Shown here: positions 49,550 to 64,000 of the stretch, piece after piece | How positions within the stretch are numbered: the stretch's first letter is position 1 | Layout of the letters: each line of letters opens with the position of its first letter | Source: Aggregatilineales bacterium | Lineage (GTDB): Bacteria; Chloroflexota; Anaerolineae; Aggregatilineales; Ch27 | Assembly: GCA_029976025.1 (NCBI GenBank) | Contig: JARKNX010000177.1 | Location: 8,897-72,896 of the forward strand | Direction: 5' to 3' | Length of the DNA: 64,000 bases | Program-made: the position numbers and the translations under genes | The notes under the pieces: model-generated | Database searches by the model: none | Told to the model about the DNA's origin: nothing | Seen by the model: only the letters and a program-made list of their open reading frames with translations

Positions 49550-50446
49550 TTGACAGACAGGGTCGCACGGACGATCATGCCACGTTCCTCACCCAACTTG
49601 CAAGATACCCGGCCAGCCTTCGTAGCGATCTCCGATCGGCCTTACGGGCGGCTGGCGTCCGGGGCGATCGTCGCCGCTGCGGTGCTCGTGATTGCGCTCT
49701 GGCTGCTGGGGACGCCGGAGGGCATCCCCGGCAAGGCGGACGCCATCGGCTACGCCATCTGCCACCAGATTCCCGAGCGATCGTTTCACGTTCACGACAC
49801 CCCCCTGCCCCTGTGCGCCCGCTGCACCGGCACATATCTGGGCGTGATGGTCGGGCTGGGCATTCTGCTGGCGGCGGGCCGCGGCCGGGCCAGCCAGCTC
49901 CCTCCTGCGGCGGTGCTGGTCATCCTGGTGCTGTTCTTCATGCTGATGGGCCTCGACGGCGTCAACAGCTTCCTGCACCTGCTCCCCGGCTACAGCGGCC
50001 CCTACGAGCCGACTAACTGGCTGCGCCTGATCACCGGCTCCCTCGCCGGGCTGACCATGATCACCATCCTGCTGCCGGTATTCAGCGCCTCAACATGGGC
50101 CGCCCCGGAGTCGAAGCCGGTGCTCCGCCACGTGGGCGAGCTGGCGGGTATGCTGGCGATCATCGGGCTGGTGGACGCGCTGGTGCTCACCCGGGAACCG
50201 CTGCTGCTGACCTTTTTCGGCCTGCTCAGCGCCGCCGGCCCGGTCGTCATCCTGACCCTGGCCTGGGCCGTGCTCTTCCTCAACATGACCCGCCGCGAAG
50301 GCACGATTCGCCGCCCGCGCGATCTGATCCTGCCCCTGCTCGCCGGGCTGACTCTGGCCTTCGTGATGATCGGCCTGATCGACTTCCTGCGCCTCCAGCT
50401 CACGGGAACCTGGGCGGGGTTCAGCCTCAGCCAGTTTGGCTGGTAG
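49550..50446 (+). CDS. DUF2085-like polytopic membrane protein
   Basis: YAICHQIPERSFH...PLCARCTGTYLG signature followed by several TM helices. Start uncertain (TTG 49550 or ATG 49577). Confidence 0.6.
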   Translation: MTDRVARTIMPRSSPNLQDTRPAFVAISDRPYGRLASGAIVAAAVLVIALWLLGTPEGIPGKADAIGYAICHQIPERSFHVHDTPLPLCARCTGTYLGVMVGLGILLAAGRGRASQLPPAAVLVILVLFFMLMGLDGVNSFLHLLPGYSGPYEPTNWLRLITGSLAGLTMITILLPVFSASTWAAPESKPVLRHVGELAGMLAIIGLVDALVLTREPLLLTFFGLLSAAGPVVILTLAWAVLFLNMTRREGTIRRPRDLILPLLAGLTLAFVMIGLIDFLRLQLTGTWAGFSLSQFGW

Positions 50447-51086
50447 ACGCCGTCTGGACGGCCAGAAGCATCCCCCCTCGCAGCCGGACAACCGCCTCCG
50501 GCCCGCTGAAAGTATTGCTGATGCCGCGCGCCGGCCCAAATACCAGTGTTTCATCCCGCAGGGGGTACTCCAGCCCTTCTGTGGCAACGCCTGACACATC
50601 CCCTCCCAGCGGGATCAGCGACAGGGTGTCGCCGACAGCGCCATCCAGAACGTATTCGCCGGGGGGCATCACCCAGGCCGTCTGCTCCCCGGCAACCAGC
50701 CGCACATCTCGCTGCTGCAGGAACGGGAGCGTGAGCAGCAAGATATTAGCCAGGGTCTGGTCCAGCCGATCACCCATGGCGCCAACGATCCGCACCCACG
50801 ACGCGCCGCTCTCGGCGACAAAATGCAGCCCAAGCTCCAGATCAGTTTCGTCTTTGGCCGGGGGATAGCGGTGAATTGCCGCCCCCTGCGCCGCAAAACG
50901 CGCCAGGTCATCTTCGCTCAGCGAATCCATATCGCCGATCACGACCTGTGGGGTGAGGCCCAGCGCCAGCAGATGCCGCCCGCCGCCATCCACCGCGACG
51001 CACAGCGATTCCGGCATGAAGCGAAGTGCGGAGTCAACCGCCGTCCCGGGGTTCAGATCGCCATTTGCAAAAAGGATGGCCCGCAT
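50427..51086 (-). CDS. thiN: Thiamine pyrophosphokinase
   Basis: MRAILFANGDL...VVIGDMDSL...PPAKDETDLELGL motifs. ATG at 51086 follows AGGGAGAG. Confidence 0.75.
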   Translation of the reverse strand: MRAILFANGDLNPGTAVDSALRFMPESLCVAVDGGGRHLLALGLTPQVVIGDMDSLSEDDLARFAAQGAAIHRYPPAKDETDLELGLHFVAESGASWVRIVGAMGDRLDQTLANILLLTLPFLQQRDVRLVAGEQTAWVMPPGEYVLDGAVGDTLSLIPLGGDVSGVATEGLEYPLRDETLVFGPARGISNTFSGPEAVVRLRGGMLLAVQTASTSQTG

Positions 51087-51172
51087 GACTCTCCCTCGCC
51101 AGACAGAAATCGCGCCGCCCACTCAACCGGACGGCGCAGCGCCTCATGACAATGCAGCCGGGCAGCGGTGGC

Positions 51173-52243
51173 TCAACGCACCTTGCGCACCCAGCGATCT
51201 TTATACAGCACAATATCGGACAGGCTTTGCACTTCCAAAAAGTCCATGATCAGACGGTGGAAGTTGGCCGGGTCGGAAAGCATCGGGAAGTGCCCCACTT
51301 CTGGCACCACCTCGCAGCGGAAGCTGCTGTTGTTGTAGCCCAGAAAAGTCATCAGCTCCGCGCTGGGGGCCTTGAGGAAGCGATCATTCTCCCCGTGGAT
51401 CATCAGGGTCGGCGTGGCCAGCCGGCGGATATCGTGGGCCAGATCGATCCGGTCAAAGGACTGCATGCTGCTGGCGAAGGCTGTCGGCGCCGTCTTGGCC
51501 ACTTCAGCCACATACCGCTCGTACTCCGGCGTATCGCGATCAAGATGTTCCGCCAGCAGGTCCTGCGGCGTCTTATCCGCCAGCACCTTGCGCAGTGGAC
51601 CGGGCGTCACAGGGGTCTCCTTTGCCGCCGGCGCGCCGGGCAGGCCCAGATCAGATAGCCTGGGGATCGGGTCGCCGGGTTTGATCTCCGTTCCCGCCAG
51701 GGGGGCCATGCCGGGGCGCCGCAACACAGTCGCATCGCTGGCCGAAGCGGGCGGCGCGGCCTGCCCCTCGGCGATGCGCTTTTGCAGCTCCGCCGGGCGG
51801 GCCATGACCGTGGGCGGCGCAGGCACTGGCGGCGATGGTGGCGGCGTGTCAGGTACCGGGGCAGAAGCCTGCTCCGACTCGAAGACGGGCGGGCTGATAA
51901 CCATCAGCCGCGCCACCCGGGCCGGGCTGCGGAGCGCGTAGCGGATCATCACCGCCGCGCCGAGCGAATGCCCCACAAACGCCGCCTTGGGGATGCCCAG
52001 CCGGTCCATGAAGGTATTCAACAGCTCGATCTGAGCATCCAGGCCCAGCTTCTGCGGGTCCTTGCCCGAATCGCCGTAGCCCCACAGGTCCACGGCGTAT
52101 GTCCGATACTTCATGGAGAGCTGCTGCATTGAGGGGAGCCAGTACCGCCACGAATTCAGCCAGCCGTGCAGCAAAATAACCGGGCGGCCGCGGCCAAGCA
52201 CCTCATAATGGACCAGATCGTTGTCAATGGTTACAGCACTCAT
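51173..52243 (-). CDS. Alpha/beta hydrolase with ~100-aa Pro-rich insertion
   Basis: ILLHGWLNSWRYW, nucleophile elbow FVGHSLGAAV, C-terminal GHFPML. A Pro/Ala-rich segment (PVPDTPPPSPPVPAPPTV...) is inserted where the cap/lid normally sits. Confidence 0.75.
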   Translation of the reverse strand: MSAVTIDNDLVHYEVLGRGRPVILLHGWLNSWRYWLPSMQQLSMKYRTYAVDLWGYGDSGKDPQKLGLDAQIELLNTFMDRLGIPKAAFVGHSLGAAVMIRYALRSPARVARLMVISPPVFESEQASAPVPDTPPPSPPVPAPPTVMARPAELQKRIAEGQAAPPASASDATVLRRPGMAPLAGTEIKPGDPIPRLSDLGLPGAPAAKETPVTPGPLRKVLADKTPQDLLAEHLDRDTPEYERYVAEVAKTAPTAFASSMQSFDRIDLAHDIRRLATPTLMIHGENDRFLKAPSAELMTFLGYNNSSFRCEVVPEVGHFPMLSDPANFHRLIMDFLEVQSLSDIVLYKDRWVRKVR

Positions 52244-52274: not shown

Positions 52275-52652
52275 TCAGCTCAGCTCAAGCCCTCTGAGAA
52301 TCTCCGCCACGCGGCGCGTGAGTTCATCCGGCGCGAACGGCTTGAGGATATAGGCCATGGCGCCGGCTTCAAGGCCAGCCTGCATCTCTACATCCTGCCC
52401 CTTGGCCGAAAGAAACACCACCGGGATTTCCTTGACCCCATCCATCTGCTTGAGCACCCGGCAGGCTTCGTAGCCGGTCATCTTCGGCATACGCACGTCC
52501 ATCAGAATCAGGTCCGGCATCACCGTCGGAGCCATCTCTACGGCCTCAGCGCCGTTAGATGCTTTGTGCACCTCATGCCCGGCATACTTGAGCGTGAACT
52601 CCACCAGGTCCCGGATATCACGCTCGTCTTCAGCGATCAGGATTCTCGCCAT
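52275..52652 (-). CDS. Single-domain response regulator (CheY-like receiver)
   Basis: ARILIAEDE...LILMDVRMPKMTG...LSAKG...ILKPF. ATG at 52652 follows GGTGGAG. Confidence 0.85.
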   Translation of the reverse strand: MARILIAEDERDIRDLVEFTLKYAGHEVHKASNGAEAVEMAPTVMPDLILMDVRMPKMTGYEACRVLKQMDGVKEIPVVFLSAKGQDVEMQAGLEAGAMAYILKPFAPDELTRRVAEILRGLELS

Positions 52653-52718
52653 GCTCACTCCACCTTACCTATAGATTCAGCGGCAGGCCGGCTTCCGGAA
52701 GGCTTCAACGCCGCCCGG

Positions 52719-55700
52719 TTACTCAGCCTGCATCTGGGCCAGCTCCGCCGGCAGCTCGGTTATCAGAGGGATGACCACATAAAAGGTCGACCCGGCTCCT
52801 TCCTGACTTTCCAGCCAGATGCGGCCATTGTGCATCTGGATCAGCTCCTTGACCAGAGCCAGGCCCAGCCCGGTGCCGGGGGTCTCGATCACCAGGGGGT
52901 CCTCATCATAGCGATAGAAGCGATCGAAAACGCGGCTCTGCTGATCTTCGGGGATGCCGATGCCGGTGTCAGCTACGGAGAACAGAATAGCATCCGCGCC
53001 TTCCATCCGGACAGACAGGGTAATAGTACCATTTTCGGGGGTGTACTGGTAGGCATTATCGACCAGATTGGTCATAACCTGCATCAGTTTGTCCGGGTCC
53101 GCGTAGGTATCGGGGAGGCCCTCATCGATCGCCTCGACCACCGTCATGGCTTTGCGTTCCGTCCCGATACGCCCGCGCAGATTGTCCAGCACCGTGTGCG
53201 CGATCTGGCCGAGGTTGATCTGCTGATAGTGGAGCGTAGAGCTGCCGGAATCGATGCGGGAGATGTTGAGCAGGTCATTGACCAGAATGCTCAGACGATC
53301 GGCGTTGTTCTTGATGACCGTCAGGAAGTCCCGCTGGTGCTCGTTTATTTCACCGACCGCGCCCATGACCAGCAGATCAGCATAGCCCTTGATGCTCGTC
53401 ATTGGCGTCCGCAGCTCGTGCGAGACATTGGAGATGAACTCCGTCTTCATGCGGTCCACTTCGACATCGCGGGTGATATCGCGCACCACCGATACCGTCC
53501 CGAGGAACTGGTCGCCCATATGGACCGGGGCCAGAGTAACCTGAACGACGCGCTCGCCTAACTCCAGCGTCTCCGCCAGGTAATCGCCGGAGCGAATCTG
53601 GCTGGGGTCGTTCATCCAGCGCTGGATGGTATCGGCCCACTGCCGCCCGCCGCCGCCGTAGAGGCCGCGCAGACTGCTGATCGGGCGGCCCAGAATCTCG
53701 TTACGCCGGATGCCCAGCACGCGCTCAGCAGTCCGGTTGAACAGGGTAATTTCGCCTGTCTCATTGGCGAACATCACGCCGTCAGCGACGCCTTCCAGAA
53801 TAGCGTTGCTCTTGGATGCCTCGATCTGCTGCTCGCGGACCATATCACCCAGCCGCTCAGCCTGTTCGCGGATGAAGAGGTACAGTTCCGCGTTATTGAT
53901 GGAGGTCGAAAGCTGGTTGGCGGAGGCCATCGCCAGCCGCAGGTGATCCTCATTGAAGATCCCCGGCTGGCTGTTGTAGAGCATCAGAACGCCAAGCACC
54001 TCGTCGCTGGTTTCCAGCAGCACCGCCAGCGTAGCGCGCGGGATGCGATCGCGGGGCGAGTCCTGCATCCAGCGCGAGTCCGTCTGAACATCATCAACAA
54101 CAATCGACTGTCGATTCTGGATCACCCAGCCGGCCAGCCCTTCATTGAGGCGCTGCCCGCCCTCCGGGCCGGGGCCGGCCACCTGATCGCCCAGTTCAGC
54201 CCGCCTGTACAACTGCTCGGAGTGGTGGTCGATGAGCAGGATCAGCCCCTGCTCCGCGCCGGTCGCCTCCGCCAGCAGGTGCAGCGCGCGGTCCAGCACG
54301 CGGTCCATATCAAGCGTCGCCGACAGTTCTGCCGTGATGGTGTACAGCACGTTGAGCCGGTCGCGCTCCGACCGCACTTCTTCGGTCTGGGCGCGGACAC
54401 GCCGCTCCAGCTCCTGGTTGAAGCGCCTCAGCTCGCTGAAGAGGTTAGCGTTCTGGATAGCGACGGCAAGCTGACTGGCGACGGTGGTCAGGATGCGCTG
54501 GTCGTTAATACCGAAGGAACGCGGGTCATGCTCGTCTCCAATCGCCAGCACTCCGACGGTCTCCAGGCCGACTGACAGCGGCACAGCCACAAAGCTGGCC
54601 AGGTCCGGTATCGTCGTCTCAATCTCGAGGTTGCGGCGCACGCCAGCCAGTTCATCGCCCAGCAGGATCAGTGGCCTGTTGTGGCGGATGATCCACGAGA
54701 ATTCGTCCTGTCCCAGCGGCCGGGTCGGAAGCGCAACATCCTTGCCCTGGTATATCGCAACCGGGAAGCTCAGTTCGTCGTTTTCGCGCTCGTACAGGGC
54801 AAGGTACAGCCATTCGGCATGCGTCAGAGAGGGAATCTGGGTGCGGACGATTGGCAGCAGCTCCCGCATATCGACCGCCGCCGACACCAGGCGGCTCAGA
54901 TCGTTGATCAGGAAGGCGAGCTGAACCTGAGCGGCTGTCTCGGTATTCAGGCGGGCGTTTTCAATGGAGATGGCCGCCTGCCCGGCCAGGGTGCGCGCGA
55001 TACGCTGGGCGCTCAGGCTGAAGCTCCGGTAAGCGCCGCAGGCATCAATCCTGACCAGCCCGATGGCGTTTTCGCGCACAACCAGCGGGATCAGCATGCG
55101 AGCGGTGCTCCCGGCTTCTTCCATCTCTGCCAGCTCATGTGGCTCAATCTCATCCCCGCGCTCGCGGTGCAGGACAATGGCGGTGCGCTCCTGCAGGACT
55201 TCCCGGCGCAGCGGATACTGACGCAGCGCGTAAATTGTCCCCGCCGGGGCGCTCCGATCCGCGTCGATCTGATTGACATCCGCATAAACGCGCAGTTCCT
55301 GCTCAACCTCGTCCCACAGCATAACGGAACAGGCATCGGCGCCGAGCGCCGCCAGCATTTGCTGGGCCACGCTGCTCATAACTGTGTCCAGCTCCAGCGT
55401 CAGCGAGGTGGCCTGTGAAGCCTCAAACAGAGTTTCCAGTTCGCGCGTACGGACGAAAGACTGCTCCAGAAGGTTGGCATTCTGGGCGGCGATGGCGGCC
55501 TGCGAGGCCACTATCTGCGCCAGCTCCACCTGCTCCGGAGTGAAGCGCCGCCGCTCCCCCGCCGCCTCAAACAGGAAGAAGCCGATCACCTGGCCGCCGA
55601 CAACCAGCGGAGTGATCATCAGCGAAGCAATATCGCGCGCGTGCAGGGCGACGCGCATGCTGCGCAGCAGGGGGTCGCCCATCGCGTCTTCCACAACCAG

Positions 55701-58700
55701 CGGCTGCGAAGTTCGCCGGATGTAATCAACCGCCGAGTCCTGATCCAGCACGATGATCTCGGTCGGCGGCGCATCCCCGCGCGGATACTCAACGATGACG
55801 GAGCCGATCGACTGCTCCAGATCGAAGAGCACGGCGCGGGCGCCGGGCAGGTCCAGCGCCTCGGCAGTCTCGCGCAGGGCGACTTCGAAGATATTCTCGA
55901 CATCCAGCGACTGGGCCAGCCGCACCGACACACGGTTCAACAGGCTGAGGCGCTCGGTCTGCTGGGTCAGTTCGTACGTACGGCGGCGCGCGTCGGCGAA
56001 CAGGCGCGCATTTTCCAGCGCCACCGCCGCCTGGTTAGCGAAGGCCAGCGTAAGCTGCACATCGTTGTCGGTGTAATAATTCGGCTCCACCTTATCCAGC
56101 GCCAGCAGGCCGATGATCTCCCCTTTGCTGATCAGCGGCGCGCCGAGCCAGTTCAGCGTAGGACGGTGCTCGCTGGCCGGGAAGCGTTCATCCTGCCGCA
56201 CATCCAGGACGTTGAGAGCCTGCTGACGTTCGGCGATATCGCGGAAGAGGGCGCTGTCCTCAATGGCGACAGTCAGGCCGATCAGCTCAGCGGCAGTGCC
56301 GCCGTATCCACGCGCTGAGGCGATGCGCAGATTCTGATCCTCGCGCAGCCAGAGTGTCACGCCGTCGTACACCACCACTTCGCCAAGCTGGTCCAGCACC
56401 AGGCTGATCACCTGCTCCGGCTCCAGGGTCGCGGTCAGGCGGCTGGAAACATCGGTCAGCGCGGTAAGCTGCTCGGCGCGGGCCGCCAGGTCCGCCTCCA
56501 GCCGGGCGCGCTCCGTGACATCCTCCACCAGCAGCACCACGCCGGTGACCTCACCCTCCTGCTGGAGTGGATACAGATAGAAGTTCTGGACAAAGTGCTG
56601 ATCGGCGGAGGGCTGGCTGACCACGTTGAACAGCACTTCCGGCCGGCCCGTGGCGATCACGTTGCTCAGGCCGCCGGCCAGAATTTCCCGGTATTCCGGG
56701 CGGTACGCAAATAAATGCTGCCCTTCCGCCTCAGAAGTCCATCCGTAATGGAGACGCATGAAGTTGTTAAGAGTCGTCACCTCTCCATCGCGATCCATCA
56801 CCACAATGCCCTGCTGAATGGACTCGACGATGGCGCCGGTGTAGCTCTGCAGATCGCGCATCTCCTGATACAGCCGGGCGTTCTGGATGGCGATGGATGC
56901 CTGGGTGGCGAAGATGGCCGCGCGCTCCATAGCAGTGACGCTGAACGGCTCTTCTGAAGCGATGCGAACTACCACCAGCACGCCCAGGGCCACTCCTTCC
57001 CGCAGGAGCGGGACGCCCATGACCGACCGCGGCGTGAAGAGGCCGGTGAGCGCGCTGTCGAACTCGTTCTGGAGAGACACATCGTTGACATAAAGCGGCT
57101 GCTGATCTGTGAATACGCGGGCCGCCAGCACGCGGCGATCGTCCAGCCCCACCCGCATCCCTACGAAATCCTGGTGGGCCAGCCCCACGCCGGCGATGCC
57201 GAGCAATTCGCCGTGATCGGCCTGGAAGATATAAGCGCCCTCCACCGCCAGAATTTCCAGACTCTCCTGGCAAATACTGGCCAGCGTCGTGGGCAGGTCC
57301 AGCGTGGCGTTGAGGTGGCTGCCCAGGCGTGCCAGCACTGTCGAGAAGCGCTCGCGCTCGGCTGTCTGCTGGTACAGGCGGGCGTTCTCGATGGCGACTG
57401 ATGCCAGGTTCGCCACACGCTGCACCAGGGGCACGCTCCGGGTGTCGAAGCCAAAAGCGTTGTTCAGCTCGCTGCCCATATGCAGCACGCCGACGACGAT
57501 GCCGCCGACCGTCATCGGCACAATCAGGCTGCTGCGATCGCGCTGCGCGTACCACTCCGCCAGGTCCTGATACGGGATATCAGTCTCGTCTTCGCCCAGC
57601 AGGTACACATGGCCGCTGGCCTCGCTGAAGCAGCGCCCCATTGCCGTGTCGGTCACAGGAATCGGGCGACCAGGCCGGACATCCATCCGATCTATATTGA
57701 CGAAGTGCACTTCCAGCGTATCGAAATAATCGTTGACTTCGTCATAAAAGCCCACGGTGAGCCGCGTAAAGGGCAGAAAACGCTGCAACGCCTCAGCCAC
57801 CGCCCGCACGATCCGATTGATGTCCAGCGTGCTGGTGACCGCCTGCATCATCTCATTAAACAGAGCTTCTTGTTCAGCGGAGCGGCTTGTTTCCTGATAC
57901 AGGCGAGTCATCTCGATGGCGTTGGCTGCCTGGTTGGCGAACAGCTCGATCGGGCGGATGCTCGCCTCAGTCGGAGCCTGGCCCCGGGCCGGATCGCGCA
58001 TGCCGATCACGCCGATCAGGCGATTCTCAGCGCCGTAAATCGGCAGGTACACCTGATCATCCGGATGCCAGACGCCGGCCGGCACAGCCGTCCCGGGGTC
58101 CGGCGGCTGCCCGCCGCGCAAATGCTCAATCACCCAGGGAGCGTCATAACGCAGGTAAAACGCCGTCCCCAGCCGCATTTCGTAGAAGGCCGGGTCGGAC
58201 AGGCGCTGGCGCCACTCCGCGCCGGAGCCGAGCAGGCTGTTCAACTCGTCAACTTCCTCGTCGTCATAGCCCGCGTAGATCAGCGTAGTCGGCTCCATGC
58301 GCTCATCGCGCAGCGTGATGAAGACACGGCGCCAGCCAGCGCTCCGGATGCCCTGAGTGACCACCTGCAGACGGGTGGGGACATCCGCCGCCCGCTGAAT
58401 CTCGGTAGAAACAGCGTACAGACGCTCCAGCAGGTCGCGCTCCCGGCGGGCGGCGTCAACCTCGCGCTGCACTGTCTCCAGCAGCCAGAAGTTCTCCACC
58501 GCAATGGCCGCCTGCTGGGCAAAAATCTCCAGCGGCTCGATAACCGAACGCACCGGACGCCGGCCATCCGTCGGGGCGTCCACGCTTATGTAGCCGACCA
58601 TGGTCCCATGTGAGTCGCGCAAGGGGACCATCAGAAGATCGTCCGGCTGCCAGAGGGCCGTCGACTCGGCGTCGGTGACGTACTCCTCGTGGTAAAGCAG

Positions 58701-61700
58701 ATCGCCGTCAGTGAGGAAATGCGCCCATTCCGACGACGCTTCCGTCGGCAGGAAGTAGGACTGGCTGATACGGAATTTCTCCTGCATCAACCCTTCAATC
58801 CGGGAGCGGGGGGTGGTCTTCTGCTTGATCTCGGCGAACGTAGCCAGCGGGATGCCGGCCTGAGCCACCCGGCGGAACGCATCGATCTGCTCATCGAAAA
58901 TGCTGATCAGGACGACGGCGTAACCCGCCGACATCTGAATGGCGTGTGCGACCGCCTCCAGGACGCCCTCCACATCGCGCTCGGAGCGCAGCACCTGGCC
59001 CAGCTCGAAAATCTGGTTGAGCTGCTCCACGCGGCGGCTGAGGAGCAAGTTGCGGCTGATCTGCTCGCGGAAGCTGGCGTAGTTGCCGTAGGCAGTGGCC
59101 GCCTTCAGCGCCAGAGCGCTGACGAACAGCTCCGTCTGGGAGTCAAATACCCGGGCCGCAGTATGCGCCAGATGAATGACGCCGACGGGTTTTTCGTCAT
59201 ACAGAATCGGCACGATCAGGGCTGAGATCGCTGAGGCAGGCTCCGCCTCCCAGGGGCTATCGGCGTAGTCAGCCACCGCGATCACCGATCGGGTGCGCAG
59301 CGCTTCCTCCTCCACCGGCAGGCTGGCCGCCGGCAGGACATCTTCGGCCCCGTAACGCCGCATCTCCTCCGGCTGCGCGACATCGGCCCATTCCTCGCGC
59401 GGGGAAAGCATGAGCAGGGTGCATTCAGCCACCCCGGTGACCTGCATCACTTCGCGCCGGATCACCCGGGTGATGCGGTCCAGCTCCACCGTCAGGGCCA
59501 ACTCGTTGGCGACGCGGTTGATAGCGTCGAGTTCGGCCACCCGCGTCCGGAGGGCGGCATCGTTCATATCACGCAGACGCAACCGTTCGATGGCGGCGCT
59601 GATCTGCAAAGCAATCAGCCGCAGGCCGTCCAGGTCCTGCGGCCGGTAGTCGCCGGGACGATTCGCCACGACTAGCTCGCCCAGATTCTGTCCGCCAGCT
59701 TTCAGCGGGGCGACCGCGAGCCGGGTCAGATGCAGCCGGTCGAGCAGCGGTCGGTACACAGCCGGCAGGTCAGAGTCCTGATTCGGGTTATTGCTCAGCA
59801 GCGACCGCCCGGAGATCAGGGCGCTGCTTTCGCTGCCCGGGGCGTAGACATCGATCGTCAGCTCATCCGCCGGAGATGCCCCGTAGACGTATTCCGGCAG
59901 AATCCGCAGCGCCCCGCTGGATTCATCCAGGAAGTCCACCAGCGCAATCGGGCTGTCGAAGAAATGCGCCGTCTCTCGCAGGGCGCCCTGCAGCATCTCC
60001 GTAAGCGAAGCCGGGCGGCTGAGAATCTCCGAGATGACGCGCAGAGCGCGGGACTCGCTGATTTGCGCCTGAATCTCGCTTTGCAGATGCGTGTTTTCCA
60101 GCGTCAACGCCAGTTGCGCCGCCAGAATACCGGCAATCCGGGCATCATCCCCGGTGAAACCCAGATGCCCGCGCTTGTTGCAGATCAGGATCGCGCCGAT
60201 AGCAGCGCCGCGGACGAGCAAAGGCGCCAGCAAAATCTGCTGGATGCCCACCCAGCTTGTCAGTTGTTCCAGCCCAATTTCAGCGGCAACCGGGTCAGCG
60301 CTCAGATCATTGCACAGCCAGTACTCGCCCTCCCGCCACAGGCGCTCCATCTCGCCCTGGATCGGAATCTGGATGTACTGAAGCAGCTCCGGATCAACGC
60401 CCTGGAAGGTCGGATCGGGGACCAGCGCCCGGCGGGGGGCCTCAAACAACAGCACGCCGGCCATCTCGGCGCCGAAGAGCGCGATCATGCGCGCCGACGA
60501 GTCGGTATACAGCGCAGCGTAGTCGCGCGTCCGCCCCGCCGCCAGCCCGATCTCGTGCAGGGCGCGGACCTCGGCGCTGCGGCGCTGGTCGCGCTCAATC
60601 AGGCTCAGGCTGTCCAGCACGATGGCGGCCTGGGCAGCGAACAGGCTCAGCCGCTGGATCTCCCCGGGACCGATATTTTCACCGTTACGCCGGTTGCAGA
60701 TCTGCACCATGCCGATCCGCCGCCGGCCAATCATCATGGGGACCAGGGCCATCGAGCGCAAGCCAAGCGGCTCGCAATAGTCCCGCAGGCCAATCTCGTC
60801 GATCAGGGTTTCGTCGCGCAGCCGGTTGGCGTACCAGCCCTCATCGCGCAAGAAGACTCGCCGGGCGGCCGAGCCTTCCGGAAGATCAAAGTGATAAGCG
60901 TCCAGGATAGCGTCGGGCATCCCCTGGAAGGGCCGCTGCGGGATCAGGCGTTCTTGCAGCGGGTCATGCAGGAGCAGGCCGCAAACCTGAACGTCAAGGG
61001 CCTGGGCGATATGCTGGACAAACCGCGCGACAAGCTGCCCCTGATCGGTGAGCGTCGCCGAGCCTTCCAGCATAGCCTGCACGCCGGAAAGCTCGTTATA
61101 GCGCAGAACCCGGTCTTCATAAAGCCGGGCTTTATCAATCGCGGCGGCTATCTGGTTAGCGGCGGCTTCCAGGAGCGAAAGGTCCTCATAATTGAACAGC
61201 CGGGGCTGGGCGCCGACAAGTTGTACGACCCCCAGGAACTGCTCCCCGATGAGCAACGGAGCGCCGATGTAGCTGCGACACTCCACGCCCCGCTCCGTCG
61301 ACAAAGCGATGCCGGGGTTGTTCAGGCCATCTTCGACCAGGAGCGGCTGCCGGTAGGTGACTACCCAGCCCGTATATCCCTGCCCGCTGGAGGCTTCTTC
61401 TCCCAGCAGTTCCAGCCCCTGAAGGTGGTCAGGATTCCCCTGCCCGGCCAGGGCTGTGAACGTCCCCGCCTCCGCGCCCCACACCGCAATCTGCCCGGCT
61501 TCGTAGGTGATCGCCCGGCTCAGGCTGGTGAGGATGGCTTCCATTGTCTCAACAAGAGGCTGGTTAGCCGCGATATGCTGGCCGATCTCGCTCAGCGTGA
61601 CCAGAGATCGGGCGGTGCTCGCGCCATATTCTACGCGGTCCGCGGCCATGTCGCGCAGGACGACGACCATATGCCGCGCCGCCCCCTCCCCCGGTAGCTG

Positions 61701-62045
61701 GTGTGACGAAGCGTCCAGCCGGCGCAGGCCAAGCTGAAAAGTCGCCCGGCCCTCTGTCGCGAAGAGATCGCGGAACGCATCAGCCGGGCTGACCATGGCT
61801 GCCATGACTTCCAGATCGGGTTCACCGCCGTTCATGCCGAACCACTGGCGGGCATGCTGGTTGGCAAACGTGACACGCCCGTAACCTGACGACAGCAGAA
61901 TCGCGTCCGTGGTGCTGGCCAGATTGACAGGCACCGGCGGGCGATCGTGCAAAGCCAGATCGGCACGCTTACGCTGGCGGAGTAACCAGTACACCGCTCC
62001 AAGCAACACCAGGCCAGCAATGAGTAGATAAACAGCCAGATTCAT
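52719..62045 (-). CDS. Giant (3108 aa) membrane-anchored sensor histidine kinase with ~14 GAF and >=2 PAS domains
   Basis: N-terminal TM LAVYLLIAGLVLLGAVYWLL. Fourteen recurrences of the GAF-terminal helix (for example FANQAANAIEMTRLYQE, VANLASVAIENARLYQQ, FATQASIAIQNARLYQE, FANQAAVALENARLFAD). PAS segments (IVESIQQGIVVMDRDGEV..; ILEGVADGVMFANETGEI..). HisKA SHELRTPM (His codon at 53418-53420). HATPase DTGIGIP...GTGLGLALV. Confidence 0.9.
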   Translation of the reverse strand: MNLAVYLLIAGLVLLGAVYWLLRQRKRADLALHDRPPVPVNLASTTDAILLSSGYGRVTFANQHARQWFGMNGGEPDLEVMAAMVSPADAFRDLFATEGRATFQLGLRRLDASSHQLPGEGAARHMVVVLRDMAADRVEYGASTARSLVTLSEIGQHIAANQPLVETMEAILTSLSRAITYEAGQIAVWGAEAGTFTALAGQGNPDHLQGLELLGEEASSGQGYTGWVVTYRQPLLVEDGLNNPGIALSTERGVECRSYIGAPLLIGEQFLGVVQLVGAQPRLFNYEDLSLLEAAANQIAAAIDKARLYEDRVLRYNELSGVQAMLEGSATLTDQGQLVARFVQHIAQALDVQVCGLLLHDPLQERLIPQRPFQGMPDAILDAYHFDLPEGSAARRVFLRDEGWYANRLRDETLIDEIGLRDYCEPLGLRSMALVPMMIGRRRIGMVQICNRRNGENIGPGEIQRLSLFAAQAAIVLDSLSLIERDQRRSAEVRALHEIGLAAGRTRDYAALYTDSSARMIALFGAEMAGVLLFEAPRRALVPDPTFQGVDPELLQYIQIPIQGEMERLWREGEYWLCNDLSADPVAAEIGLEQLTSWVGIQQILLAPLLVRGAAIGAILICNKRGHLGFTGDDARIAGILAAQLALTLENTHLQSEIQAQISESRALRVISEILSRPASLTEMLQGALRETAHFFDSPIALVDFLDESSGALRILPEYVYGASPADELTIDVYAPGSESSALISGRSLLSNNPNQDSDLPAVYRPLLDRLHLTRLAVAPLKAGGQNLGELVVANRPGDYRPQDLDGLRLIALQISAAIERLRLRDMNDAALRTRVAELDAINRVANELALTVELDRITRVIRREVMQVTGVAECTLLMLSPREEWADVAQPEEMRRYGAEDVLPAASLPVEEEALRTRSVIAVADYADSPWEAEPASAISALIVPILYDEKPVGVIHLAHTAARVFDSQTELFVSALALKAATAYGNYASFREQISRNLLLSRRVEQLNQIFELGQVLRSERDVEGVLEAVAHAIQMSAGYAVVLISIFDEQIDAFRRVAQAGIPLATFAEIKQKTTPRSRIEGLMQEKFRISQSYFLPTEASSEWAHFLTDGDLLYHEEYVTDAESTALWQPDDLLMVPLRDSHGTMVGYISVDAPTDGRRPVRSVIEPLEIFAQQAAIAVENFWLLETVQREVDAARRERDLLERLYAVSTEIQRAADVPTRLQVVTQGIRSAGWRRVFITLRDERMEPTTLIYAGYDDEEVDELNSLLGSGAEWRQRLSDPAFYEMRLGTAFYLRYDAPWVIEHLRGGQPPDPGTAVPAGVWHPDDQVYLPIYGAENRLIGVIGMRDPARGQAPTEASIRPIELFANQAANAIEMTRLYQETSRSAEQEALFNEMMQAVTSTLDINRIVRAVAEALQRFLPFTRLTVGFYDEVNDYFDTLEVHFVNIDRMDVRPGRPIPVTDTAMGRCFSEASGHVYLLGEDETDIPYQDLAEWYAQRDRSSLIVPMTVGGIVVGVLHMGSELNNAFGFDTRSVPLVQRVANLASVAIENARLYQQTAERERFSTVLARLGSHLNATLDLPTTLASICQESLEILAVEGAYIFQADHGELLGIAGVGLAHQDFVGMRVGLDDRRVLAARVFTDQQPLYVNDVSLQNEFDSALTGLFTPRSVMGVPLLREGVALGVLVVVRIASEEPFSVTAMERAAIFATQASIAIQNARLYQEMRDLQSYTGAIVESIQQGIVVMDRDGEVTTLNNFMRLHYGWTSEAEGQHLFAYRPEYREILAGGLSNVIATGRPEVLFNVVSQPSADQHFVQNFYLYPLQQEGEVTGVVLLVEDVTERARLEADLAARAEQLTALTDVSSRLTATLEPEQVISLVLDQLGEVVVYDGVTLWLREDQNLRIASARGYGGTAAELIGLTVAIEDSALFRDIAERQQALNVLDVRQDERFPASEHRPTLNWLGAPLISKGEIIGLLALDKVEPNYYTDNDVQLTLAFANQAAVALENARLFADARRRTYELTQQTERLSLLNRVSVRLAQSLDVENIFEVALRETAEALDLPGARAVLFDLEQSIGSVIVEYPRGDAPPTEIIVLDQDSAVDYIRRTSQPLVVEDAMGDPLLRSMRVALHARDIASLMITPLVVGGQVIGFFLFEAAGERRRFTPEQVELAQIVASQAAIAAQNANLLEQSFVRTRELETLFEASQATSLTLELDTVMSSVAQQMLAALGADACSVMLWDEVEQELRVYADVNQIDADRSAPAGTIYALRQYPLRREVLQERTAIVLHRERGDEIEPHELAEMEEAGSTARMLIPLVVRENAIGLVRIDACGAYRSFSLSAQRIARTLAGQAAISIENARLNTETAAQVQLAFLINDLSRLVSAAVDMRELLPIVRTQIPSLTHAEWLYLALYERENDELSFPVAIYQGKDVALPTRPLGQDEFSWIIRHNRPLILLGDELAGVRRNLEIETTIPDLASFVAVPLSVGLETVGVLAIGDEHDPRSFGINDQRILTTVASQLAVAIQNANLFSELRRFNQELERRVRAQTEEVRSERDRLNVLYTITAELSATLDMDRVLDRALHLLAEATGAEQGLILLIDHHSEQLYRRAELGDQVAGPGPEGGQRLNEGLAGWVIQNRQSIVVDDVQTDSRWMQDSPRDRIPRATLAVLLETSDEVLGVLMLYNSQPGIFNEDHLRLAMASANQLSTSINNAELYLFIREQAERLGDMVREQQIEASKSNAILEGVADGVMFANETGEITLFNRTAERVLGIRRNEILGRPISSLRGLYGGGGRQWADTIQRWMNDPSQIRSGDYLAETLELGERVVQVTLAPVHMGDQFLGTVSVVRDITRDVEVDRMKTEFISNVSHELRTPMTSIKGYADLLVMGAVGEINEHQRDFLTVIKNNADRLSILVNDLLNISRIDSGSSTLHYQQINLGQIAHTVLDNLRGRIGTERKAMTVVEAIDEGLPDTYADPDKLMQVMTNLVDNAYQYTPENGTITLSVRMEGADAILFSVADTGIGIPEDQQSRVFDRFYRYDEDPLVIETPGTGLGLALVKELIQMHNGRIWLESQEGAGSTFYVVIPLITELPAELAQMQAE

Positions 62046-62108: not shown

Positions 62109-63035
62109 CTACCACTCTGTTTCGTATTCTTCAACAGGCGCGCCCCCCAGGCGGCGATCTTCCGCAGCCAGCTCCGTGATCTCGCGAATGTCGGCGAACG
62201 TCTGCGTCCGTGCGGAAACCGACCCGACTGAGAGCGTCATCAGCGGAACCTGCCGTTCAGCGCCGTCGCTGGTGTGGACGATCATGTAACCGCGCTCGCG
62301 ATCAATGAACGAATAATGCTGCTTGATGTCATCCGCGAAGCGCCTGACAATCCGATCCTTGAGGCCCTGCAGGTTATCCGTGTGAGTGATGACAACAAAA
62401 TTGTCACCGCCAGGGTGGCCGACGAAATCGTTGGGCGTCCCCATCTCGTCTATCACCTCGCCCAGCAGCAGGGCCGTGAACCGCTGCACTTCGTTGCCGG
62501 CCACGAAGCCATACACTTCGCGGAAGGCATCGAGCTGGTTAACTTTGATGTCGATATAGCTCCAGGTGTTGTTGCTCGGCGTGCGCATCAGGTCGCGAAG
62601 CTGCTCTTCAATCAACCGGCCGCTGGGCAGCCCGGAGTTGGCATCGGTCAGGGAGATCATCTCCGAACGCTGGATGGCGTTCTGGACGCGCAGCTTAAGC
62701 TCCTCGATATCGAACGGCTTGGTGATGTAATCGTCCGCGCCCAGCTCCAGCCCGGCGATCTTATCGCTGCGCTCATCCTTCTGGGTCAGGAAGATGATCG
62801 GGATATGGCTGGTCCGCGTTGTCGTGCGCAATTCCTTACAGACGGCGTACCCATCCATGTCCGGCAGCATAATATCCAGCACAATCAGGTGGGGGAGTTG
62901 TTTGCGCGTGTAATTAAGCGCATCACCCCCACGCGGCGCGACCTGAACATCGTACCCCTGTCCGCTGAAATAAATACGCAGCATGTTGGAGATATCGACA
63001 TCATCCTCAACTATCAGAATCTTGGTTTTGCTCAT
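62109..63035 (-). CDS. Response regulator: receiver + degenerate GGDEF-like domain (GGDNF)
   Basis: Receiver ILIVEDD...IVLDIMLPDMDG...TQKD...ITKPF. Output domain has TDANSGLPSGRL, IDIKVNQLDAFREVYG and GHPGGDNFVV (GGC GGT GAC AAT TTT at 62397-62411). Confidence 0.85.
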   Translation of the reverse strand: MSKTKILIVEDDVDISNMLRIYFSGQGYDVQVAPRGGDALNYTRKQLPHLIVLDIMLPDMDGYAVCKELRTTTRTSHIPIIFLTQKDERSDKIAGLELGADDYITKPFDIEELKLRVQNAIQRSEMISLTDANSGLPSGRLIEEQLRDLMRTPSNNTWSYIDIKVNQLDAFREVYGFVAGNEVQRFTALLLGEVIDEMGTPNDFVGHPGGDNFVVITHTDNLQGLKDRIVRRFADDIKQHYSFIDRERGYMIVHTSDGAERQVPLMTLSVGSVSARTQTFADIREITELAAEDRRLGGAPVEEYETEW

Positions 63036-63356
63036 ACCTGATCACTCCCCAACGTAAAGGGCGAACCCTCGTTGAAGTGGTGCGGCGTCTGTGCCACAGG
63101 CAGCCGCGCCACTCGATTAAACAAGGTTTACGGTCCATCATTACTATACATGTGAACGTTTTGAGACGCCACCGCACTCCTAACGAAACCCTAACCTGAG
63201 CAGGCTCCTCCGGCGCAGAAGAATGCCCGGCCCTTCCGCCACAATCCGGCCGAGATTCCTGTAGATTCCCGGGGATTCTGTATCTTCTGTCGCCAGTACG
63301 CAGGAGAATACAGGCCCTTCTCCTCCGTTGTGACCGTTCAGAACAGGTTAGAACGG

Positions 63357-64000
63357 TTAAGAAATTCCTACCCCGGCGGGCGGCGACCACGCGCGGCGGT
63401 TCGCAGCCGCCCGTTCGCGCACATGAGCGATATGCTCCGCGGTGACAGGGCCGCGCTCAAAACTGCGGAAGTAACCGAGCCGGAAGCCGTGCCGCCTGGC
63501 AATCTCGCTGATCTCGCGCACCTGTGCCCGCGAGATTTGCTTGCCCAGGCTGTAATCCTCATACCGGCCTTCCAGCGCCAGAGCCATCGTCTCCGCCATG
63601 CAGGCGTACGCCATCCGCGGCGGGAAGCCGAAATCAAAGTGGAAGTCCACCGGGCCGGGCACTTCAACCATCCCGCCTTCAATAACCAGCACATCATCCC
63701 GCAGGGCAGCGACCTGTTTGGAGACATCGCGCGGGCGGGCGACATCGCAGACAACTGCCCCTGGCTTGAGGTGCCGGGCTTCGATCACGGCCGTTGTGGC
63801 GCTGGTCACGGTCAGGACCAGATCAGCGTCGTAGATGCTGTCCACCCCGGTGCTCGTATCCAGATCGGCCCGCCCGCCCTCCTCGCACAGCTCTCGCACA
63901 GCCGCCAGCGCTTCCTCCCGGCGCCCGATCAGAGTCAGGTGGGCCACTTCTTCAGCCAGCATCTGGGCGCACACACTGCCAATCGCGCCGGTCGCGCCAA
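63357..64000 (-). CDS. Rossmann-fold dehydrogenase of the COG5322 / acyl-ACP-reductase-like type (5'-partial, continues beyond window)
   Basis: The frame is open to nt 64000. The last in-window codons read GATGAIGSVCAQML (GxGxxG). The track 'M' at 63974 is an internal GTG (Val). The C-terminal part VVCDVARPRDV...VIEGGMVEVPG...MAETMALALEG resembles cyanobacterial AAR-like proteins (from memory). Confidence 0.6.
   Translation of the reverse strand, partial: GATGAIGSVCAQMLAEEVAHLTLIGRREEALAAVRELCEEGGRADLDTSTGVDSIYDADLVLTVTSATTAVIEARHLKPGAVVCDVARPRDVSKQVAALRDDVLVIEGGMVEVPGPVDFHFDFGFPPRMAYACMAETMALALEGRYEDYSLGKQISRAQVREISEIARRHGFRLGYFRSFERGPVTAEHIAHVRERAAANRRAWSPPAGVGIS

Follow-up and report, generated by a model that had tools for sequence, protein, structure and literature searches.

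A 14-GAF sensor histidine kinase with heptad-spaced module junctions and conserved flanking receivers in an Aggregatilineales bacterium

The DNA analysed here (the window) comprises 64,000 nucleotides (nt) of contig JARKNX010000177.1 from an Aggregatilineales bacterium and carries on its minus strand a complete gene for a multi-GAF sensor histidine kinase (52719..62045, stop codon included). The gene is a single open reading frame (ORF) of 3108 codons with an ATG start and zero internal stops, the longest ORF of the region, and its G+C content is even, ~0.63-0.65 over most of its length and ~0.59-0.62 in the 1-kb windows at both ends. An entry identical to the 3108-residue kinase is included in the public protein collection, and a search for further GAF genes across the window found none besides this one. 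On the same strand, a gene for a 308-amino-acid (aa) response regulator lies upstream across a 63-nt gap (62109..63035) and a gene for a 127-aa single-domain CheY-like receiver lies downstream across a 60-nt gap (52275..52658); a preliminary description of this DNA had named both, as a receiver-GGDNF protein and a CheY, and Pfam confirms the two assignments. In every respect that could be tested, the large protein is a HisKA-type (class I) sensor kinase with GAF and PAS inputs.

From its N-terminus the kinase consists of a transmembrane (TM) helix, a weak PAS-like segment, GAF1 to GAF9, a PAS domain (PAS-A), GAF10 to GAF14, a second PAS domain (PAS-B), HisKA and HATPase_c, all encoded on the minus strand. 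The TM helix (aa 3-22; 61980..62039) has the top 19-residue Kyte-Doolittle mean, 2.36, and is the only credible TM segment of the kinase, with ~2 residues outside. It is followed by RQRKR and, by the positive-inside rule, nearly the whole kinase is therefore predicted to be cytoplasmic. The next segment (aa ~38-135; 61641..61934) is conserved, with a mean orthologue identity of 0.55, and matches PAS_8 weakly, both in the query (15.7 bits against a cut-off of 21.8, E = 0.014) and in 14 of 16 orthologues (best E = 2.9e-4); its best hit in a profile search against PDB sequences, E = 0.18, is not significant. Of the N-terminal features in the preliminary description, the single TM helix thus stands, and the PAS call is weak.

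GAF modules were counted by cutting the protein at the recurring terminal helix and scanning each piece alone with Pfam, and their coordinates are envelopes from a family-specific hidden Markov model (HMM). The first block contains GAF1 (aa 136-316; 61098..61640; GAF_2, 53.8 bits, full length), GAF2 (aa 310-490; 60576..61118; GAF, 38.5 bits), GAF3 (aa 481-662; 60060..60605; GAF_2, 30.8 bits, and GAF, 30.9 bits), GAF4 (aa 652-830; 59556..60092; GAF_2, 51.7 bits), GAF5 (aa 826-999; 59049..59570; GAF, 44.9 bits), GAF6 (aa 996-1196; 58458..59060), which has an insertion of ~25 aa, GAF7 (aa 1193-1390; 57876..58469; GAF_2, 32.4 bits), with an insertion and an invariant WHP, GAF8 (aa 1384-1565; 57351..57896; GAF_2, 37.0 bits) and GAF9 (aa 1561-1733; 56847..57365; GAF_2, 48.7 bits). 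PAS-A follows (aa 1740-1848; 56502..56828; PAS_4, 48.8 bits against a cut-off of 23.1, full length). The second block contains GAF10 (aa 1847-2023; 55977..56507; GAF, 58.9 bits), GAF11 (aa 2020-2200; 55446..55988; GAF, 62.2 bits), GAF12 (aa 2194-2374; 54924..55466; GAF, 43.2 bits), GAF13 (aa 2366-2543; 54417..54950; GAF_2, 48.4 bits) and GAF14 (aa 2551-2731; 53853..54395; GAF_2, 72.1 bits).

All 14 pieces are matched by GAF, GAF_2 or GAF_3 across nearly the full model length, and 13 of them exceed a Pfam gathering score on their own. GAF6, the weakest Pfam match, falls just below the cut-offs (GAF_2, 23.3 against 28.6 bits; GAF, 21.6 against 22.4; E = 8e-5), its match spans model positions 2-136, and it scores 110 bits with the family HMM. 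A scan of the whole protein gives 13 stretches for GAF_2, 12 for GAF and 10 for GAF_3. The family-specific HMM finds 14 domains, each with E <= 5e-27, a count that carries no independent weight, the kinase and its relatives being the sequences from which the model was made. The 14 modules of the preliminary description are thereby upheld, and the prospect that an HMM analysis would leave far fewer GAF domains separated by helical filler is not borne out. Its two PAS domains, one after the ninth module and one before the kinase core, are likewise recovered as PAS-A and PAS-B (aa 2747-2858; 53472..53807). The latter is matched by PAS, PAS_8 and PAS_9; over the whole protein the PAS family reaches 57.0 bits in two stretches against a cut-off of 22.6, the best stretch being aa 2748-2791, and PAS_8 reaches 43.8 bits.

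The catalytic core is canonical. The HisKA (DHp) domain (aa 2866-2934; 53244..53450) matches PF00512 at 72.2 bits (cut-off 26.9) and contains the H-box SHELRTP, in which His2876 is invariant among the orthologues; its codon, 53418-53420, is the one identified at the outset. The HATPase_c domain (aa 2983-3094; 52764..53099) matches PF02518 at 104.6 bits with intact N, G1, F and G2 boxes (NLVDNA, DTGIG, FDRF and GTGLGL). For the PAS-DHp-CA portion, the best NCBIfam matches are PnpS, WalK and PhoR, all below the equivalog cut-offs.

We found 16 full-length orthologues, of 3085-3145 aa and 41-65% identity, in metagenome-assembled genomes (MAGs) of Anaerolineae, and all are collinear with the kinase, their 14 GAFs being matched one to one with its own. 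A genome scan located the loci in MAGs labelled Anaerolineae, Aggregatilineales, Ardenticatenia or Chloroflexota. In the 17-sequence alignment every module has 0-3% gaps, and a module-by-module comparison with an orthologue of 42% identity is strictly diagonal. Mean identity to the query ranges from 0.38 (GAF1) to 0.63 (GAF10) among the GAFs and is 0.75 for HisKA; GAF1-4 are the least conserved (0.38-0.44). The paralogous modules within the kinase share a mean of 18% identity (range 11-26%), so that the 38-63% per-module identity of orthologues is two to three times that of paralogues. From this ratio and the one-to-one diagonal match it follows that the 14-module array is older than the divergence of these lineages, in agreement with the old expansion first proposed. 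The alignment further indicates that each GAF module is kept under its own constraint. GAF6, GAF10 and GAF14 have 33, 40 and 46 invariant columns, respectively, GAF10 being the best-conserved GAF, and the invariant residues are specific to the module: SyFlPtE in GAF6, WHP in GAF7, TLW/ARG/DxRFP in GAF10 and GLAGW...DVQxDxRW in GAF14, the last being the canonical pocket motif, which GAF14 retains.

The spacing between successive GAF modules is quantised. We measured each junction from the Leu of the terminal helix (..ENArL) to the second Leu in helix 1 of the following module (ELxxL), and obtained 14, 14, 14, 18, 21, 21, 14 and 14 residues before the central PAS and 21, 14, 14 and 32 after it. 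Among 1278 junctions in the best 120 database relatives of the kinase, the sample on which the family survey rests, the values are 14 (783), 18 (122), 21 (228), 25 (5) and 32 (90), the remainder being 35 (11), 39 (23), 56 (13) and 10 or 11 (3). By class, 1035 junctions are of length 7n, 242 of length 7n+4 and one is neither; when each of the 59 distinct junction vectors is counted once, the corresponding numbers are 522, 120 and one. The rule survives all architectural variants. As a control, the distance from the last GAF landmark to the H-box His, with PAS-B in between, takes a continuous range of values from 145 to 169, an indication that the landmark method does not itself impose the quantisation.

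Multiples of seven, and seven combined with a four-residue 'stutter', are tolerated by a continuous parallel coiled coil (PMC6798134). The same work describes tandem PAS and GAF domains as regularly spaced, presents heptad periodicity of sensor-effector and sensor-sensor linkers as an accepted sign of coiled-coil signalling, and treats tandem sensor modules on coiled coils as known to integrate signals (PMC6798134). Given that the heptad periodicity of linkers is already on record there, the junction rule adds no new principle but bears out a known one on a data set of unusual size. In line with it, an AlphaFold2 model of aa 2366-3108 made with 14 orthologue fragments (mean predicted local distance difference test score (pLDDT) 75.7, predicted template modelling score (pTM) 0.36) gives GAF folds for GAF13 and GAF14 and a PAS fold for PAS-B, and predicts unbroken helices of 64 residues between GAF13 and GAF14, across the junction of the 32 type, 49 residues between GAF14 and PAS-B, and 36 residues from PAS-B into the His-bearing DHp helix. 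The nearest folds to this fragment found with Foldseek are a WalK model, full-length bacteriophytochromes, VicK and HK853. Together, the quantised junctions and the predicted helices are consistent with a continuous coiled-coil spine. The preliminary description had left a choice between massive signal integration and a rod-like arrangement; the junctions and the modelled helices back a rod-like spine, and they do not separate the two ideas.

The number of GAF modules varies within the family. The 120 relatives contain 10-17, except for one protein of 4750 aa containing ~25, so that 14 is typical for the subgroup and no record. In every fetched locus with enough flank, we found the same gene order, namely a shikimate-dehydrogenase-like gene, a REC-GGDEF-like regulator, the kinase, a single-domain REC, an alpha/beta hydrolase and a thiamin pyrophosphokinase. 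Two further kinases, one with 12 GAFs (6.2-Mb contig) and one with 11 (0.7-Mb contig), are embedded in the same cassette, which identifies these proteins as positional orthologues that vary in module number; forms with 11, 12, 14 and 17 GAFs have been confirmed by locus. The 12-GAF form lacks query modules 7 and 9, the 11-GAF form lacks modules 7, 9 and 11, and the 15- to 17-GAF forms, of which the 17-GAF form (P0012, locus L008) is the one checked for the cassette, have two or three additional GAF11-like modules directly before the central PAS. Modules 1-6 and 12-14 are common to all forms compared, and gain and loss occur mainly just before the central PAS. Across lineages, the regulator is 65-85% and the receiver 69-86% identical, compared with 33-61% for the kinase, so that the kinase is by far the fastest-evolving of the three. 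We also considered the ~25-GAF relative (P0112, locus L015) as a positional orthologue and rejected it, since it has no kinase domain by Pfam and sits among different genes. A TMEM260-like gene lies upstream of it, and its junctions are 7n or 7n+4 except for one of 10.

A search of the full-text literature turned up no study of giant kinases with many GAFs in Chloroflexota or Anaerolineae, and on linkers it returned only general work on coiled-coil linkers. The kinase belongs with the Anaerolineae entries named 'GAF domain-containing protein' or 'PAS domain S-box-containing protein' in NCBI and JGI, ~16 of which have the same 14-GAF architecture and gene neighbourhood; the window kinase is 41-65% identical to these and shows no substantive difference. 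It is thus one more member of a widespread, automatically annotated and experimentally unstudied Anaerolineae family. What is new is the series of 11 to 17 modules in positional orthologues, the 7n/7n+4 junction rule and a conserved Rec-G-x-DNF partner.

Of the signatures that the preliminary description had proposed to look for in the GAFs, the bilin-binding Cys and the cyclic-nucleotide (cNMP) motif NKFDE are both absent. The entire kinase contains zero Cys-His dipeptides and Pfam finds no PHY domain, on which grounds a bilin photoreceptor of the phytochrome or cyanobacteriochrome kind was rejected. The only conserved Cys residues are C355, C2239 and C1592; in an alignment read by eye the first two fall in the predicted first beta-strand and C1592 in an N-terminal helix, and none of them occupies the position expected for bilin attachment. 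The full NKFDE motif was not found in the kinase, and the nearest approach, N623-K-x5-F-x3-D-A in GAF3, has a K and a D that are not conserved in the orthologues; cNMP-binding GAFs of the phosphodiesterase/CyaB type were therefore rejected as well. The PDB sequence relatives of the GAFs include the GAF of a Geobacter chemoreceptor and the GAFs of PtsP, DevS/DosT and a cGMP phosphodiesterase. These matches are too weak for assigning a ligand through solved GAFs, the best (E = 8e-8) being to the Geobacter methyl-accepting chemotaxis protein, whose GAF has no known ligand. Two His residues, H958 and H1327, are conserved within GAFs.

The upstream regulator combines a canonical receiver (Response_reg, 102.8 bits; Asp54, Thr84 and Lys106) with a helical linker and a degenerate GGDEF-like domain, which Pfam matches over model positions 2-106 of 161 with a score of just 28.1 bits. 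Its closest folds found with Foldseek are 3bre, 3i5a, 6zxm and 2v0n, which belong to WspR, DgcR and PleD. Relative to PleD, GGEEF is replaced by GGDNF and the RxxD I-site by TPND, and in an alignment read by eye an Asn stands at the equivalent of PleD D344. The motif in relatives is GGDNF, GSDNF or GNDNF, from which 'DNF' emerges as the conserved part. Further invariant motifs are HYSFIDRERG, FADIREITELAAE.RR and a C-terminal TEW, for which we know of no counterpart in characterised cyclases. The regulator lacks the GG[DE]EF sequence with its catalytic Glu that marks an active diguanylate cyclase; with that Glu lost, cyclase activity is unlikely in the light of established GGDEF enzymology, and the degenerate G-x-DNF site suggests that the protein is probably a nucleotide- or protein-binding effector. 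It stands beside the kinase in eight loci at 65-85% identity, with orthologues seen in L002, L004, L006-L011, L012 and L013, and its sequence is represented by more than 120 clusters at >= 67% identity, which pipelines have named 'response regulator', 'PleD family' or 'OmpR family'. The downstream receiver (Response_reg, 104.6 bits) has all of the phospho-site residues; it is conserved behind the kinase at 69-86% identity and is also found in L012 and L013.

Parts of the system can be compared with characterised proteins. The last ~380 residues of the kinase match the WalK/VicK/PhoR/PnpS group best (PnpS, 313 bits; WalK, 287 bits), and the C-terminal fragment resembles the WalK model 9a5d and VicK 4i5s in fold; those kinases, however, have extracytoplasmic sensors and HAMP, where this one has a 2700-aa cytoplasmic GAF array. 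Bacteriophytochrome kinases (PAS-GAF-PHY-HisKA-HATPase, such as P. aeruginosa BphP, 9eut) share with it GAF-type modules and a long helical spine that leads into DHp, and they rank second in the Foldseek search with the C-terminal fragment, at sequence identities of only 12-15%. Unlike them, the kinase has no bilin Cys, no recognisable PHY tongue, 14 GAFs in place of GAF and PHY, and a membrane anchor. Tandem-GAF regulators (cyclic-nucleotide phosphodiesterases, cyanobacterial CyaB cyclases, DosS/DevS and multi-GAF cyanobacteriochromes) likewise carry regularly spaced GAFs on long connecting helices, but they have two to a handful of them, with known ligands (cNMP, haem or bilin), whereas the kinase has 14, no NKFDE and no bilin Cys. 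WspR, DgcR and PleD share the order of REC, helical linker and GGDEF fold with the upstream regulator; they differ from it in having GG[DE]EF in place of G-[GSN]-D-N-F, which is not accompanied by an RxxD I-site.

The reading that we favour, and consider probable, is that of a membrane-tethered, cytoplasmic, dimeric HisKA kinase on a coiled-coil spine, with output to the flanking receivers. The class-I kinase would lie almost entirely in the cytoplasm, tethered to the membrane by its one N-terminal helix and most likely assembled as a parallel homodimer, with 14 GAF and two, perhaps three, PAS modules strung along a single unbroken alpha-helical coiled coil. In this spine, each GAF's final helix would be continuous with the first helix of the next and finally with the DHp helix bearing His2876. 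Binding of ligands or partners to some of the modules may shift the register or supercoiling of the spine, and such a shift would decide how far autophosphorylation or phosphatase activity prevails at the far end of the spine; in HisKA kinases, the H-E-x-x-T motif is linked to phosphatase activity. The phosphoryl group would then pass to the two receivers encoded on either side, the CheY-like one acting as a second output or as a phosphate sink. That the modules are conserved one by one argues for a function in each GAF; that middle modules come and go freely while the partners stay the same argues for a chiefly structural role of several of them.

Several observations weigh against parts of this reading. 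The 1278 junctions come from related proteins and are not independent events; the hydrophobic a/d pattern of the linkers is only moderate; and the dimer and the coiled coil are deduced from sequence spacing and from a monomer model with a pTM of only 0.36. A ligand could be assigned to none of the 14 GAFs, bilin and cNMP signatures being absent and the relatives of the GAFs in the PDB weak (E >= 8e-8). The variation in GAF number from 11 to 17 with nearly constant partners argues that not every module is an indispensable input. The two receivers are candidate phosphotransfer partners by gene adjacency, and scans of the region for sigma-70 promoters and terminators found nothing above shuffled expectation, although the consensus patterns used may not suit Chloroflexota.

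The most radical alternative, that the gene is an assembly artefact, a chimera or a decaying pseudogene built from repeated GAF units, draws on its length and repetitiveness and on at least one MAG in which it is seemingly split over two contigs of the same isolate. It has effectively been refuted. The ORF and the catalytic motifs are intact, and no tandem DNA repeats were found in the gene, within which recurrence is limited to the 50 nt that code for the terminal helix (60-82% identity, spacings of 504-582 nt). As the modules share just 11-26% identity as protein, collapse or expansion of near-identical repeats during assembly is ruled out, and so is a recent repeat expansion; the repeats are as diverged as the preliminary description had judged. 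Moreover, the 16 orthologues were assembled independently and are collinear, of the same length and nearly gap-free, which answers the concern over an artefact without long reads. The seemingly split orthologue belongs to the MAG of isolate H21_247, in which the N-terminal ~1360 aa end L009 and the C-terminal ~1740 aa begin L003; short-read assemblies do at times break inside the kinase gene.

Two other alternatives concern what the array does, and the same data bear on both. If it were mainly a structural rod or spacer, most GAFs would be rigid, dimerising beads that sense nothing and keep the kinase core at a distance of tens of nanometres from its membrane anchor or serve as a docking scaffold, and sensing would be left to a few modules such as GAF10, GAF14 and the PAS domains. 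Strict heptad quantisation of the junctions speaks for such a rod, as do the 11-17 modules of positional orthologues whose partners and end modules stay the same, the retention of the canonical pocket motif in only some modules, and the low conservation of the N-terminal ones (GAF1-4). Against it stand the one-to-one maintenance of all modules at two to three times paralogue identity and the invariant, non-structural residues that individual modules possess (WHP in GAF7, SyFlPtE in GAF6), and a plain coiled coil would be a cheaper rod; we regard this explanation as unlikely. Those module-specific residues and the individual retention of modules instead suit a many-input integrator, in which most or all of the 14 GAFs would bind different metabolites and the kinase would compute a combined output; tandem sensors on coiled coils are known to integrate signals (PMC6798134). 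Yet a recognisable ligand signature is found in zero modules, whole modules have been gained and lost between close lineages with unchanged partners, and 14 independent inputs to one output would be without precedent, so that an integrator of this breadth seems very unlikely.

A more specific possibility, which we put forward as speculation and to which we attach little credence at present, is that the array is a register-locked signalling rod of defined length, whose module number (11-17) is a tuned physical parameter and does not reflect a list of ligands. That parameter could be, for example, the reach from the membrane or the cooperativity of a long-range allosteric wire; by rough estimate, 14 GAF beads on one uninterrupted dimeric coiled coil would, if fully stretched out, cover several tens of nanometres. 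Were the array such a rod, the 7n/7n+4 rule would be a selective constraint that allows whole modules to be inserted or removed without breaking transmission.

Whichever way the modules work, the new results provide experimental handles within known kinds of system; current concepts are left unchanged and known principles are taken to an extreme. The kinase is a clean natural example of the 'sensor beads on a coiled coil' design stretched far, and its family amounts to a natural experiment on how signals travel in long spines, how modules are changed in register and which modules are sensors and which are spacers. The Rec-G-x-DNF partner adds an uncharacterised output protein that is common among Anaerolineae, whose signalling biology is little known and for which genetic tools are few.

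The cassette continues downstream of the CheY-like receiver with an alpha/beta hydrolase (51173-52243) and a thiamin pyrophosphokinase (50427-51122), both assigned by Pfam, on the minus strand and syntenic, the two genes being found in the same order in L002-L008 and L010-L013. The ends of the hydrolase align well, with 53-81% identity over the N-terminal ~120 aa, and its middle ~80-100 residues are unalignable in most orthologues, which points to a lid or insertion that varies. Between the stop of the hydrolase gene and the start of the thiamin pyrophosphokinase gene is the region's strongest terminator-like hairpin (51111-51138, minus strand; 11 pairs, eight of them G-C); in total number, sites of this kind do not exceed shuffled expectation. 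At the other end of the cassette, a 127-aa ORF (63007-63390, minus strand), for which Pfam gives no match, is found between the regulator and the shikimate-dehydrogenase-like gene; in L013 a 139-aa gene, also with no Pfam match, occupies a similar position, with a beta-lactamase gene between it and the regulator. The shikimate-dehydrogenase-like ORF itself (63357-63974, minus strand) encodes 205 aa that match Shikimate_DH, and as the orthologues in L012 and L013 are ~366-370 aa long, it is probably just the C-terminal part of a gene that probably begins past the window's end.

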